DNA of 64,000 nt, from IMG/VR virus record IMGVR_UViG_3300008954_001678, one strand, 5' to 3'. Shown piece by piece: positions 2,316 through 18,216 of the stretch. Position numbers and translations under genes: made by a program. Source of the stretch: an uncultured virus (IMG/VR IMGVR_UViG_3300008954_001678) (taxonomy: Duplodnaviria > Heunggongvirae > Uroviricota > Caudoviricetes). How positions within the stretch are numbered: the first letter of the stretch is position 1; each line of letters opens with the position of its first letter. Under the pieces are notes generated by a model that made no database searches, was not told the DNA's origin, and saw only the letters and a list, made by a program, of their open reading frames with translations.

Positions 2316-3143
2316 ATGATAAACACGAAAGATTACAATTCTCTAGTTCAGAAACTAAGAGAATTTTTTTTGCACAAAGGTTTCTTAGAAGTACCAGTGC
2401 AATCAAGACTAAGTATCCTCGCAGCATGTGAGGACCCGTTCACAGTTGAACAATTTAATTGGGCAAACGAAGTTTGGCCATTACCACAGACAGGACAAAT
2501 GTGGTTAGAATATGAATTACTTAAAACACCAGACGTTCCTGGTGTTTTTTGTATTAGTACCTCATATAGAAACGAACCTAATCCTATACCAGGAAGACAT
2601 GAAACTATTTTCCCTATGTTTGAGTTTGAAACAAAAGGAACTATGAGTGATTTAATTAGGATGGAATCAGATTTATTACATTATCTAGACTTACCATTAC
2701 CAACGTTACATAATTATGAAGACCTAGCAACCCATTATGGTGTAGACATTATAGAAACGGAACACGAAGGAATGATGTGTGAAGAATACGGACAAGCCAC
2801 AATCATCCAAAACTTCCCAGAAAGAACATCACCGTTTTGGAATATGAAACATGACAAAGATGGAATATTCAGTAAGGTAGACGTTATTCTATATGGTCAG
2901 GAAACTATTGGGTCCGCAGAAAGAGCAACCAACATAGAAGAAATGAGACACTATTTTGATACAATTTCTGACGGTGGATATAAAAAGAAGTTATATGACT
3001 TATTTGGGAAAGAAAGAGTAGAAAAAGAATTAGACGAGTACTTTGACAATGAGTTCTTTCCAAGATTCGGAGGAGGAATTGGTGTAACCAGATTAATTAG
3101 GGCTTTAAAGATGAGAGAAAAAGAATTAGAGTTAACCCTTTAA
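2316..3143 (+). CDS. Class IIb (Asp/Asn-type) aminoacyl-tRNA synthetase paralog, catalytic core only
   Basis: Motif 1 FFLHKGFLEV, motif 2 SYRNEP...RH...FEFE, motif 3 GGGIGVTRL; about 275 aa with no N-terminal OB-fold. Confidence 0.85.
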   Translation: MINTKDYNSLVQKLREFFLHKGFLEVPVQSRLSILAACEDPFTVEQFNWANEVWPLPQTGQMWLEYELLKTPDVPGVFCISTSYRNEPNPIPGRHETIFPMFEFETKGTMSDLIRMESDLLHYLDLPLPTLHNYEDLATHYGVDIIETEHEGMMCEEYGQATIIQNFPERTSPFWNMKHDKDGIFSKVDVILYGQETIGSAERATNIEEMRHYFDTISDGGYKKKLYDLFGKERVEKELDEYFDNEFFPRFGGGIGVTRLIRALKMREKELELTL

Positions 3144-3150
3144 TTCATCT

Positions 3151-3258
3151 TGTGGGGTGGTGAAATTGGCAGACACACCCGACTGTCTCTCGGGCGGAGA
3201 ATTGAGGATAAACTTTTAAGCTAACTACTCCGTATAGGTTCGAATCCTGTCCCCACAG
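3151..3258 (+). tRNA. Atypical tRNA-like RNA, GUC (Asp) anticodon, extended variable arm
   Basis: Acceptor TGTGGGG/CCCCACA plus G discriminator; D arm GTG/CAC; anticodon arm CCCGA-CTGTCTC-TCGGG; about 39-nt variable region closed by CGGAG/CTCCG; T arm ATAGG-TTCGAAT-CCTGT; no encoded CCA. Confidence 0.8.
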
Positions 3259-3992: not shown

Positions 3993-4064
3993 GCTCCGGT
4001 CGTCTAATGGTTAGGACGCCAGGTTTTCATCCTGGTAATCGGGGTTCGATTCCCCGTCGGAGTA
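3993..4064 (+). tRNA. tRNA-Glu (UUC)
   Basis: GCTCCGG/TCGGAGT acceptor, CCAGG-TTTTCAT-CCTGG anticodon arm, GGTTCGATTCC T arm. Confidence 0.92.
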
Positions 4065-4098
4065 CAAAAATTAAAATAATACAATAAAACAAGAAATT

Positions 4099-4339: not shown

Positions 4340-4819
4340 ATGAGTAAAGTAAAAAATAAAATATCATTAGAAGACGCAAAAACCTTATCTATCCAGTTAG
4401 TAAATAAGTTAAAACCTTATTGTAAAAGAATAAAAGTAGTAGGGTCTATCCGTAGACAAAAAAAGGAAATCGGAGATATAGATATCGTTATAATTCCTCT
4501 TCCAGAATTATTCAATAAAGTAAACCAAATTATCCAAGTAGAGTTAGGTGGAAAGAAAAAAATATTTGGGAGTTATAACGGAAGACCAATTAATTTATTT
4601 TTCACTAATAATGAATCTTGGGGAGCAGCATTGTTACATTCCACAGGTCCTGCTCAATTTAATATTCGTAAAAGATTTTTAATTAAAAGAAAAGGGTTAT
4701 TATTAAATGAGTATGGGTTATTCACGAGAAATAAAAGAAAATATCTGGTAGGAGAAACCGAAAAAGAAATATTTGATTACTTAGGGTGGACATATAAGAC
4801 CGCAACACAAAGAGCGTAA
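4340..4819 (+). CDS. Minimal family X DNA polymerase (palm and thumb only)
   Basis: VGSIRR...GDIDIV; LLHSTGPAQFN; LNEYGL...TEKEIFDYLG. Confidence 0.85.
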   Translation: MSKVKNKISLEDAKTLSIQLVNKLKPYCKRIKVVGSIRRQKKEIGDIDIVIIPLPELFNKVNQIIQVELGGKKKIFGSYNGRPINLFFTNNESWGAALLHSTGPAQFNIRKRFLIKRKGLLLNEYGLFTRNKRKYLVGETEKEIFDYLGWTYKTATQRA

Positions 4820-4842
4820 CCAAAAAGAAATAAAAAAAGAAA

Positions 4843-6156
4843 ATGAACGAAAGTAAAGATTTAAAAAGAATACAAGAATTTGTGGATAAACTAAAATCCA
4901 CCAACTCAACTAATGATAAGATTGAGATTATTAAAACGTACAAGGATGACTATCTAATTAACCAGGTTTTAAAATATACATACTCACCCTTCAAACAATT
5001 TCACTTGACAAGTGCAACAGTAAAGAAGAATAAAAAATTAGAACCTAGAGGTGGATATCATGATTTATTTTATTTGTTAGATGCGTTAAGTAAAAGAACC
5101 ATAACAGGACATGACGCAATTCAATACACTAAAGGATATATTGATGGTATGGAAGATTGGCAAAAAGATTTAGTATTCTGTATTTTAGATAAGAACTTAA
5201 AGACAAGAACGGGAGCGGACCTAATCAACAAAGCAATTCCAAAATGTGTACCTACATTTAAGGTAGCACTAGCTAACTCTTATGATAAACAAAAGGGTAA
5301 AGTTGACTTCAACGAACAAACATGGTTCGCCTCCCAAAAGTTAGACGGAGTAAGATGTCTCGCTATGGTAGATGAAAACGGCAAATGTAATTTTTATTCA
5401 AGACAAGGTAAGACTTTTGATACTTTAGATACCCTTAGAAAGGAAATAGAGAGTTTAAACCTATGTAATATAGTATTTGATGGTGAGGTATGTATTGTTG
5501 ATGATAATGGTGTAGAGGACTTCCAAGGAATCATGAAAGAGATTAAAAGAAAAGACCACACAATCCAAAATCCCAAATATAAAGTATTTGATTACCTAAT
5601 GTTAGAGGAGTTTGATAACCAAGAAAGTACACGGAAATTGAGTGAGAGATTAGGTAACTTCAATATGATATATAATGAATTAGGAAAAGATTTAAACTGT
5701 ATCAATCTCCTAAAACAATGGAAGGTTGATTCAGAAGAACACTTTCAAGCACTAGCAGAACTAGCCACCAAAAATAATTGGGAAGGTTTAATACTTCGAA
5801 AAGATGTTGAATACAAAGGAAAAAGAAGTAATGACCTTCTAAAGGTGAAGAAATTCTTTGACGAAGAGTATGTTGTAAAATCTATAGAAACATCCATACA
5901 TAGAATTATTGTGGATGGGCTAGAGGTAGAAGAGGAACTACTAAGTAATGTCATTATAGAACATAAGGGATGTGATGTGGGAGTAGGGTCAGGATTCGAC
6001 CAAGAAGAAAGAAGAAAGTACTTTAAGAACCCAGAGCTAATAATAGGTAAAACAATTACCGTTCAGTACTTCGAAGAAACACTTAATCAAGACGGATGTC
6101 ACTCATTAAGATTTCCTGTAGTAAAACATGTTTACGAAAACGGTAGAAATGTTTAA
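4843..6156 (+). CDS. lig: ATP-dependent DNA ligase
   Basis: KLDGVR (motif I), FDGEV, VFD, EGLILR, LLKVK, VGSGF, LRFP. Confidence 0.95.
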   Translation: MNESKDLKRIQEFVDKLKSTNSTNDKIEIIKTYKDDYLINQVLKYTYSPFKQFHLTSATVKKNKKLEPRGGYHDLFYLLDALSKRTITGHDAIQYTKGYIDGMEDWQKDLVFCILDKNLKTRTGADLINKAIPKCVPTFKVALANSYDKQKGKVDFNEQTWFASQKLDGVRCLAMVDENGKCNFYSRQGKTFDTLDTLRKEIESLNLCNIVFDGEVCIVDDNGVEDFQGIMKEIKRKDHTIQNPKYKVFDYLMLEEFDNQESTRKLSERLGNFNMIYNELGKDLNCINLLKQWKVDSEEHFQALAELATKNNWEGLILRKDVEYKGKRSNDLLKVKKFFDEEYVVKSIETSIHRIIVDGLEVEEELLSNVIIEHKGCDVGVGSGFDQEERRKYFKNPELIIGKTITVQYFEETLNQDGCHSLRFPVVKHVYENGRNV

Positions 6157-6677: not shown

Positions 6678-6857
6678 ATGGCAAAGAAAAGAAAATTGAA
6701 CAGCAAAAACCCAAAGTACTGGGCTAAAGAAAAAAGTGAAGGACCTAAAATTAAAGAGAGAAAATTAATGTGTAATATTCCTGTACGAAATGTTAACAAG
6801 GAAATTATACCTGGTAAGACAATCCCAATGTACGGAGTGTGGTACGAAAATGAATAA
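6678..6857 (+). CDS. Small basic hypothetical protein (not in ORF track)
   Basis: 59-aa ORF MAKKRKLNSKNPKYW... fills the gap before the phosphatase. Confidence 0.55.
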   Translation: MAKKRKLNSKNPKYWAKEKSEGPKIKERKLMCNIPVRNVNKEIIPGKTIPMYGVWYENE

Positions 6858-6864
6858 TATAATT

Positions 6865-7368
6865 ATGGAAAACGAAGATATGTGGGTAATTTTTGATTTA
6901 GATGGCACACTTGCTAATATTGATAAACGTAGAAAACTAAGTCAACTCCCTAACAATAAACTTGATTGGGATAAATTCTTTGACCCGAAGAATATTGAAC
7001 TGGACGAACCTAATTCTCCAGTTATTAAAATGGCACAACTTTTAGCGTCTACTGGTCATAAGATAGCCATCTTATCTGGTAGAAGTAAGAGAACTGAAGA
7101 AGCAACTCAAAAGTGGTTAAGTGATAACGATATTCCTTATGACATTCTGAAGATGAGACCCTCCGACACCGCAGGCTCAGTTCGTCCTACCCACGGAAAA
7201 TTTGTATTCATGCCAGATGATAAACTTAAACAACACTGGCTAGATGAACTATGGAGAGGAAGAGATAGGAAGTCCATTGTGTGTGTGTTTGATGATAGAG
7301 ACAAAGTAGTTAATATGTGGAGAGAGAATGGTTTGACTTGTATGCAAGTTGCACCAGGAAACTTTTAA
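6865..7368 (+). CDS. HAD-family phosphatase resembling the 3'-phosphatase domain of T4 polynucleotide kinase
   Basis: IFDLDGTLA, LSGR, MRP...D..LK, FDDRDKVVNMWR...CMQVA; start reassigned to ATG 6865. Confidence 0.85.
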   Translation: MENEDMWVIFDLDGTLANIDKRRKLSQLPNNKLDWDKFFDPKNIELDEPNSPVIKMAQLLASTGHKIAILSGRSKRTEEATQKWLSDNDIPYDILKMRPSDTAGSVRPTHGKFVFMPDDKLKQHWLDELWRGRDRKSIVCVFDDRDKVVNMWRENGLTCMQVAPGNF

Positions 7369-17850: not shown

Positions 17851-18153
17851 ATGTTTGAAAGAAAAAACAACAACCCAATCGATAACGTAACCTGGAAAGG
17901 AGTACTTCTTTATCTTCATCATTATGTAAATGAGAAGATTGTAGATATTATCCGCAGTAAAGATATGACTGAATCGGACTCAATCACTTTATTAGGTATA
18001 AAGGAAAATGATATTTATAAAGCAAGAAGAAAGTATTTGTCCGCACACGGAGTAAATGTTTTTAGTGAAGATGATTTATATGCAGGACCACTAGAAAGAT
18101 ACACAGACGGAAGAAGTTGGGTGACATTTATAAACAACGCGAGAGTAGCTTAA
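17851..18153 (+). CDS. Hypothetical protein
   Basis: ATG 17851 lies 4 nt after TTTG-19-TATATTTG; the 3' end overlaps a tRNA. Confidence 0.6.
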   Translation: MFERKNNNPIDNVTWKGVLLYLHHYVNEKIVDIIRSKDMTESDSITLLGIKENDIYKARRKYLSAHGVNVFSEDDLYAGPLERYTDGRSWVTFINNARVA

Positions 18154-18216
18154 TTTGGTTTAAAAAAGCGATATACATCCAGTATGTAGATGGTGGTTCG
18201 ATTCCACCCTCCCGCT
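18139..18216 (+). tRNA. Degenerate tRNA-Gly (UCC)
   Basis: GCGAGAG/CTCCCGC acceptor (one mismatch) with U discriminator; ATATA-CATCCAG-TATGT anticodon arm (A33); GGTGG-TTCGATT-CCACC T arm. Confidence 0.7.

Follow-up and report, generated by a model that had tools for sequence, protein, structure and literature searches.

A recurrent viral pairing of an AsnRS-like catalytic core with a long-arm tRNA-like RNA, and its possible role in asparagine supply and use

We observed that a viral synthetase-like enzyme and a long-arm tRNA-like RNA, adjacent in the stretch of DNA analysed here (64 kb of an uncultured virus; hereafter the window), form a pair that is recurrent, not obligate. Two abundant, uncharacterised entities meet in the module: a family of AsnC-linked RNAs found in Bacteroidota, and a viral enzyme for which at least 8000 homologs exist, some in cultured cyanophages. 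As the best explanation we propose that the RNA is a carrier, not used in decoding, on which host AspRS and GatCAB generate Asn, and that the enzyme consumes Asn, probably toward dihydroorotate; we put the probability of this reading at roughly 40%. It starts from conservation, linkage, pocket motifs and gene fusions, and every chemical step in it is our proposal.

The locus

The virus record is 77.7 kb long, with a completeness estimate of 37%, and the window covers its first 64 kb. Features of the module are listed in Table 1.

Table 1. Coordinates of the enzyme-RNA module and of a neighbouring tRNA gene in the window
Feature	Position	Strand	Remarks
Synthetase-like ORF	2316..3143	+	275 aa from ATG; class IIb catalytic core, no anticodon-binding domain
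Spacer, stop codon to RNA	3144..3150	+	7 nt
Long-arm tRNA-like RNA, GUC form	3151..3258	+	108 nt; U1-A72, G2-C71, G73 at 3258
D arm, tRNA-Leu-type	3158..3177	+	A15 with U48, G18G19, extra 20a base
Anticodon arm	3178..3194	+	GUC 3185-3187, U37 3188, C38 3189
Variable arm, short form of Bacteroidota-type domain	3195..3233	+	39 nt; closed by CGGAG/CUCCG
T arm	3234..3250	+	A49-U65 and A51-U63
tRNA-Glu(UUC), ordinary	3993..4065	+	outside the enzyme-RNA module

An in-frame GTG is present at 2301, 5' of the ATG of the ORF. The only Pfam match of the ORF is PF00152 (residues 9–264), with the class IIb motifs present and no OB-fold, which agrees with the preliminary description of a catalytic core without OB-fold ending at 3143. 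The ORF falls in PHROG 29758, a family annotated as of unknown function. The promoter scan returned 8 sites against 8.9 expected, and no terminator was found 3' of the RNA.

Upstream of the enzyme, 305–835 encodes a CHU_C (type IX secretion signal) protein; this T9SS-type domain hints at a Bacteroidota host. A PolX-like protein beside an ATP-dependent DNA ligase is encoded at 4340–6156, and a PNKP-type phosphatase at 6790–7368. At 18139–18216 we noted a weak tRNA-like match (19 bits) with a T arm and no clear anticodon arm, possibly a decayed tRNA.

Structure of the window RNA

The RNA scored 42 bits on the Rfam tRNA model (cut-off 29), although default ARAGORN does not report it at 3151–3258. 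It folds as a 7/5 cloverleaf with the 39-nt variable arm, its anticodon loop reads CUGUCUC, and CCA is not encoded. All the features initially described for a tRNA-like RNA 7 nt 3' of the stop codon (U1-A72, GUC, U37, G73, a Leu-type D arm and the CGGAG/CUCCG arm) were found. Both base strands of the variable arm are common to Pedobacter copies, and the arm is without the GGUUGACC hairpin of the long forms.

Folding energy of the window RNA alone showed no excess over shuffles (z −0.74). Covariation, to which the preliminary description had pointed, was evident: among 20 distinct homologs 17 of the 25 pairs changed on both sides and 99% of cells pair, the structure having been drawn from the same 20 sequences (of 26 distinct) on which it was scored. 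The observed value was reached by 0 of 500 shuffles, and slid controls gave 0.12–0.16 compared to 0.65. RNA runs gave shares of 0.06–0.22; three of the RNA runs consist of contigs, which carry no information on expression level, strand or transcript ends. An RNA-library contig of 204 nt spans 3053–3256 and retains the arm, and this weak evidence may reflect DNA or a precursor. We consider the window RNA to be confirmed as real.

Two other structures were rejected. An intron-containing tRNA does not fit an insert that lies in the variable position (not after 37), pairs covariantly and is retained, on weak evidence, in the RNA-library contig. Base pairs between the anticodon loop and either the D arm or the arm base were not conserved across homologs.

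Comparison with canonical identity marks, which for AspRS follow PMC9976931 in part, gave a mixed picture. The bacterial tRNA-Asp marks G73, GUC, C38 and G2-C71 are present; instead of G1-C72, a short variable loop, a purine at 37, G49-U65 and G51-C63, the window RNA has U1-A72, the 39-nt arm, U37, A49-U65 and A51-U63. The latter two pairs have been linked to weak EF-Tu binding (PMC1904265). The tRNA-Leu features of the D arm (A15-U48, G18G19, 20a; PMC9976931) are all found, with A at 20a and a long arm, whereas the A73 of tRNA-Leu is replaced by G73 (25/26 and 54/54 homologous RNAs). The 8/4 or 9/3 acceptor branch and Sec-like D arm of allo-tRNAs and selC* are not seen; the 7/5 form is supported by covariation.

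A family of GUC-form RNAs

A first search pattern, which fixed the D arm, GUC and the T loop, matched 35 viral loci (26 distinct). At positions that it left free we observed G73 and W1-W72 in 25/26, C38 in 23/26 and U37 in 21/26. A second pattern matched at least 120 loci, of which 80 were fetched and 76 parsed; all the 54 distinct RNAs among these listed matches have U1-A72 (unconstrained here), G2-C71, U3-A70, G34 and G73. In the 123 distinct GUC-type RNAs, a set defined on W1-W72, the 1-72 pair is U-A in 117 and A-U in 6, the 51-63 pair is A-U or U-A in 118, and G49-C65 is found in 115. The common plan is a Leu-type body with U1-A72, G73, U37, a tRNA-Asn-type T-stem and an arm of 15–117 nt, and the class exists in two forms, GUU and GUC. 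Rfam has no entry for this family beyond the generic tRNA, and blastn against cultured phages gave no match to the long GUC RNA. U37 together with the A-U pair at 51-63 argues for a use outside routine decoding, so the non-routine role first suggested for the RNA appears well founded.

One such use would be that of an uncharged decoy or sponge, whose targets would be anticodon nucleases, AspRS or the regulation linked to AsnC, and whose giant arm would bind a protein. The conserved arm motifs, including a GGUUGACC-type hairpin in 62 of the 123 RNAs, tandem copies in several genomes, and the rarity of encoded CCA (12/123) are in line with it. Nevertheless, conservation of U1-A72, G2-C71 and G73 equals that of the anticodon, although a nuclease decoy could do without these acceptor-end marks, and cells carry the RNA stably on the chromosome. 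We therefore regard a decoy as highly improbable.

The searches also returned another class of RNAs that combine GUC with a Leu body (e.g. L119, L128, L143 and L182–L187 of L117–L189; L081), mostly with G1-C72, A73, a purine at 37, G51-C63 and an arm of 13–33 nt. Its 48 distinct members come from many phyla; one gammaproteobacterial chromosome has a cluster of several copies. With Leu identity, an Asp anticodon and a decoding-competent look, it is a candidate Asp-to-Leu mistranslating tRNA. Separately, jumbo phages (L194, L195, L200, L201, L204, L207, L208) carry several tRNA-like RNAs per genome, in which the acceptor stem (A1-U72) and T arm are near-constant and the anticodon and variable regions, often overlong, vary freely.

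The GUC RNA in Bacteroidota genomes

The GUC RNA was found in 8/151 genomes of a phylum sample and in 16/251 of a class sample (Bacteroidia). One unpublished genome among the 251, G366, enters the RNA and gatB tallies only, as RNA-negative and gatB-positive. An AsnC-like gene faces the RNA head-to-head in 16 of the 21 genomes located via the RNA (19/24 including three located via AsnC), its start lying 128–305 nt upstream of the RNA; other flanking genes vary. Searching from the protein, we found the RNA beside 3 of 5 close AsnC orthologs, so the pattern undercounts it. In the four regulators scanned, AsnC was the best model with 161–178 bits, below its cut-off of 227, compared to 50–57 for Lrp. 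In E. coli, asnC is kept opposite asnA, which it faces and activates.

gatB was present in 16/16 pattern-positive Bacteroidia compared to 193/251 overall (P 0.013, kinship not corrected); at the phylum level the difference was not significant (8/8 RNA-positive genomes vs 126/151). Among RNA-positive genomes checked, AsnRS was present in 10/10, GlnRS in 4/5 and AsnB-family genes in 5/5. An anti-correlation with asnA was uninformative, asnA being above cut-off in 4/151 genomes. Markers of discriminating versus non-discriminating AspRS in the anticodon domain showed no difference between gatB-positive genomes with the RNA (19) and without it (24), and thus gave no sign of a special need for a GUC carrier.

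Several Pedobacter genomes (L121, L136, L141, L164, L174, L181) have tandem copies of 107 nt and 141–142 nt. In one genome (L226; G223) UUC replaces GUC in both tandem AsnC-linked copies, and some other AsnC-linked copies carry G33.

Recurrence of the enzyme-RNA pair

The GUU form provides the clearest pairing. In the Prochlorococcus phages P-SSM7 and P-SSM2 a 53% identical homolog is followed, after 7 and 9 nt respectively, by a long-arm GUU tRNA with U1-A72, U37 and G73. (RefSeq places the P-SSM2 tRNA-Asn ∼2 kb downstream, inside a CDS at L536:4805–4890; the actual site is 9 nt after PSSM2_198.) A viral scan for this form, with U37 and A38 fixed by the pattern, gave at least 120 matches, of which 80 loci were fetched. 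The enzyme is upstream on the same strand in 78 of these 80 loci of the matches listed, with a spacer of at most 11 nt in 66 of the 78; the two loci without it have just 59 and 366 nt of upstream DNA. At positions left free, G73 and W1-W72 are each found in 59/59 distinct RNAs, and CCA is encoded in 51/59.

Searches that started from the enzyme gave a different result. None of 79 viral loci (60–66% identical) has the RNA within 3 kb, and none of their 49 records, 4 of them ≥90% complete, matches the GUC pattern; two complete enzyme-bearing genomes, scanned whole, have only canonical tRNA-Asn and tRNA-Asp. Among metagenome loci the RNA was found at 4/80: L382 and L383 (enzyme 94% and 88% identical to that of the window, same 7-nt spacer), L457 (59%, GUC RNA 300 nt away) and L461 (59%, GUU RNA 62 nt away). 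Starting from the GUC RNA, we found the enzyme in 1/34 and 0/45 virus records, i.e. 1/79, and in 0/12 near-complete ones. Chance pairing was rejected as the main reading, because the enzyme-first samples sat in the closest clade and missed the GUU clade, where nearly all listed loci are paired.

Thinning at 85% reduced 202 cores to 90; in their midpoint-rooted tree, the GUU-paired enzymes form two groups, to one of which L457 is sister; the window enzyme is nested in a large clade where the RNA is absent. Owing to the pattern, L537 and L457 are wrongly labelled 'none' in this tree. The slot behind the enzyme is thus repeatedly filled by the long-arm RNA class, usually in the GUU form, three times separately in the GUC form (window clade, L457, L116), and is often empty; the window is a bridge, with a Bacteroidota-type GUC RNA in the GUU slot. 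What survives of the dedicated pair of the preliminary description is its recurrence; an obligate pairing is not supported for the GUC form. Likewise, consistent adjacency to homologs was borne out for the GUU form and not for the long-arm GUC tRNA.

These data bear on two rival explanations. In the first, the core enzyme acts as a synthetase for Asn that loads the long-arm RNA anticodon-blind, like CysRS* with selC*; the GUU form would top up Asn-tRNA, and the GUC form would carry Asn on an Asp-reading RNA, either as a non-ribosomal donor or for deliberate Asp-to-Asn mistranslation like ProRSx/tRNA-ProA. The GUU adjacency and the CCA encoded there support it, as do the intact ATP and Asn motifs, and the slot accepts both forms: the GUC RNA body of L116 is nearly that of the GUU RNAs of L543 and L557, and L457 is sister to four GUU enzymes. 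On the other hand, the two complete genomes and most of the window enzyme's clade keep the enzyme without RNA, the enzyme occurs in giant-virus contigs (searched for the enzyme only), the GUC RNA persists without enzyme, and neither the conserved anticodon nor the pyrimidine fusions described below are explained. We consider such a private charging pair unlikely.

In the second, there is no biochemical link in the window lineage, and a host-derived auxiliary GUC RNA landed behind the enzyme, tRNA genes being insertion sites. This would suit the nesting of the window enzyme in a mostly RNA-less clade and the presence of the RNA behind enzymes of 94% and 88% identity and its lack at 80% (with only 69 nt of downstream DNA) and 78%; flanking genes of enzyme loci are also highly variable, with few recurrent neighbours. 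It is quite unlikely in view of the order, strand and 7-nt spacing shared with P-SSM7, the three separate GUC pairings and the regularity of the GUU loci.

Asn-rich short leaders were found ahead of 8/62 enzymes without RNA compared to 1/25 with RNA (crude filter, AT-rich DNA), as would be expected if the RNA-less enzymes wait for host Asn.

The enzyme pocket and the fusions

Motif 2 (R85, E87, R94, H95, F99), motif 3 (R259) and the residues for ATP are invariant in 46 homologs. The pocket residues of the window enzyme are AsnRS-type (Q61, E65, E103, E105, R203), and the Asn-type signature, a Glu four residues after the conserved Gln (E65) with a Glu on the motif-2 strand (E103), is likewise invariant in the 46 sequences. 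At the Asp-binding positions, Lys and Asp are both present in 8/8 AspRS and in 4/4 AsnA, whereas the core has Leu and Glu. By its residues, the pocket matches AsnRS, not AspRS or AsnA, and the earlier suggestion that Asp is the substrate is probably wrong. AsnRS was also the best NCBIfam model, all models being far below cut-off (asnS, 35.8 bits; cut-off 342.6), and it headed the PDB profile matches. EpmA fits neither by family score (19–23 bits; cut-offs 264–287) nor by its LysRS-type pocket.

The enzyme could also be a tRNA-independent asparagine synthetase like archaeal AS-AR, with enzyme and RNA as parallel routes to Asn. The core-only architecture is the same, the AS-AR structure 3P8T gives a weak profile match (positions 59–263, E 0.001), and the AS-AR model NF005055 scores 27.7 bits (cut-off 389). 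AS-AR has the Lys/Asp pattern at the Asp-binding positions. The core lacks this Lys and Asp of AspRS and AsnA, AsnRS scores higher, and the pyrimidine fusions would be unaccounted for; we rate this possibility as very unlikely.

Among 5411 candidates, 12 long homologs were found (10 of the 12 rescanned for domains), with dihydroorotate dehydrogenase in 9 and OMP decarboxylase in 1; the OB-fold anticodon-binding domain is absent from the listings of all 12. Seven of the fusion proteins are 72–84% alike and count as one event, and P0130 (39%), P0132 and P0131 are separate, so that the pyrimidine-enzyme fusions appear to have arisen in about four events. The domain order is reversed in P0132, whose core is partial; pocket motifs are retained in the fusions wherever present. 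Their rarity counts against a pyrimidine reading, as the homologs number at least 8000 and the fusions 10. Of five records of jumbo phages with the enzyme, none showed dihydroorotate dehydrogenase and one showed OMP decarboxylase; the 37% complete record of the window likewise yielded no dihydroorotate dehydrogenase. Phages with the enzyme thus mostly lack these downstream genes, and completion of the pathway would fall to the host. Another homolog, P0121, is fused to a GIY-YIG/NUMOD3 homing-endonuclease-like domain, and the unfused enzyme is also present in giant-virus-like contigs (L732–L736, two of them GVMAG records).

A proposed route through asparagine

Our preferred reading, in which Asn is made on the RNA by host enzymes and consumed by the phage enzyme, would proceed as follows. 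Host AspRS would charge the RNA with Asp, reading GUC, C38 and G73. The preliminary description had supposed recognition without anticodon reading; the near-invariance of GUC and C38 where left free makes this probably wrong for the GUC form and points to an anticodon-reading host AspRS. Moreover, the anticodon is conserved and yet alternates between GUU and GUC while the enzyme stays the same, a pattern more in line with selection by the host synthetase than by an enzyme unable to read it.

Host GatCAB would then turn Asp into Asn on the RNA, by way of U1-A72. U1-A72 is a GatCAB determinant and the anticodon is unread by GatCAB (PMC1635274). The tRNA-Asn-type T-stem would keep the Asp-RNA off EF-Tu; in Asp-tRNA-Asn, the pairs G49-C65 and A51-U63 together prevent binding to EF-Tu (PMC1904265). 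An RNA with a GUC anticodon that carries Asn would cause mistranslation if decoded, and U37 and the large arm may therefore serve to hinder decoding. Asn would next be released or passed on. Bacteroidota cells hold the RNA opposite the AsnC-like regulator, the position of asnA in E. coli.

The phage enzyme would bind Asn and ATP and supply pyrimidine synthesis. Dihydroorotate is Asn with one carbonyl bridging both nitrogens, and the most plausible reaction would be ring closure of Asn and bicarbonate to dihydroorotate, from free or RNA-borne Asn, perhaps by ATP-driven activation of N-carboxy-Asn in analogy with TsaC.

This explanation is weakest in three respects: the 20a base of the D loop, the handicap that U1-A72 poses for AspRS, and a chemistry that is so far hypothetical. 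U20A is a GatCAB antideterminant, and a tRNA-Asp with U1-A72 but U20A was amidated 120-fold worse (PMC1635274); of the GatCAB substrate features the RNA has U1-A72 and, owing to the extra base, lacks a short D loop without 20A. G1-C72 has been described as important for bacterial AspRS (PMC9976931). The AsnC scores below the cut-off of 227, the AsnB-family genes in 5/5 genomes and the genome with UUC copies also count against it.

A stronger version, doubtful but a real possibility, is a viral pyrimidine shortcut on an RNA cofactor: Asn built on the RNA by host AspRS and GatCAB would be turned by the AsnRS-derived enzyme, with bicarbonate and ATP, into dihydroorotate, skipping carbamoyl-phosphate synthetase, PyrB and PyrC, with the anticodon tuned to host AspRS and the Bacteroidota GUC form serving as an AsnC-controlled asnA replacement.

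If the preferred reading is true, the module would present a tRNA-like RNA with a purely metabolic job, give GatCAB a function even in bacteria where AsnRS and GlnRS are present, and point to an unknown shortcut in pyrimidine synthesis. Were the private charging pair true instead, a 275-aa anticodon-blind synthetase with its own tRNA would be useful for genetic-code engineering.

Comparison with known systems

In the literature covered, which included few subscription papers, we found no account of the RNA family, the pair or an Asn-to-dihydroorotate enzyme; the RNA family and the enzyme-RNA pair are apparently undescribed. The enzyme belongs to the same family as T4-GC 194 of P-SSM2 and P-SSM7 (PHROG 29758), the cyanophage homolog with the closely following long-arm tRNA, which PMC3037559 annotates just as 'tRNA ligase'; the partner RNA there is GUU and that of the window is GUC.

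CysRS* with selC* tRNA-Cys of Desulfobacterales (PMC5389517) resembles the module in having a synthetase copy without anticodon-binding domain, genetic coupling to a long-arm tRNA and an unusual 1-72 pair. That system, however, is class I with an 8/4 tRNA, always coupled, and decodes UGA, whereas the present pair is class IIb with a 7/5 body and U37, and is not obligate; its coupling counts are 78/80 for the GUU RNA (of matches listed), 1/79 for the GUC RNA, and 4/80 and 0/79 from the enzyme. ProRSx/tRNA-ProA of Streptomyces (PMC9437257) is likewise a synthetase paralog encoded next to a tRNA, and there too anticodon and amino acid may disagree; ProRSx is full-length and its mistranslation was shown, whereas the window enzyme is core only and decoding is doubtful. 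The allo-tRNAs (PMC5389517) share the long arm, G73 and often the GUC anticodon, and differ in their 8/4 or 9/3 fold, Sec-like D arm and Ser or Ala identity.

The indirect Asn pathway, with non-discriminating AspRS and GatCAB on tRNA-Asn (PMC1635274, PMC4206432), shares U1-A72, G73 and the T-stem type with the RNA, and is found in genomes with AsnRS, GlnRS and GatCAB. In that pathway the tRNA-Asn used also decodes, whereas the carrier proposed here would be a distinct RNA that has a Leu-type body, a large arm, U37 and either GUC or GUU. The staphylococcal non-proteinogenic tRNA-Gly IA (PMC1904265) has the two A-U pairs of the window RNA (49-65 and 51-63) and is a carrier used outside the ribosome, the use that we propose here; unlike the window RNA it has a short arm and donates Gly for the cell wall. 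Archaeal AS-AR/AsnRS2 (PDB 3P8T) and bacterial AsnA are stand-alone class IIb cores used in metabolism; they bind Asp and use no RNA, whereas the pocket motifs of the window core are AsnRS-type, an RNA lies next to it and some of its homologs are fused to pyrimidine enzymes. The module thus combines a CysRS*/selC*-like layout, the RNA marks of the indirect Asn pathway and an AS-AR-like metabolic core, and misses a defining feature of each.
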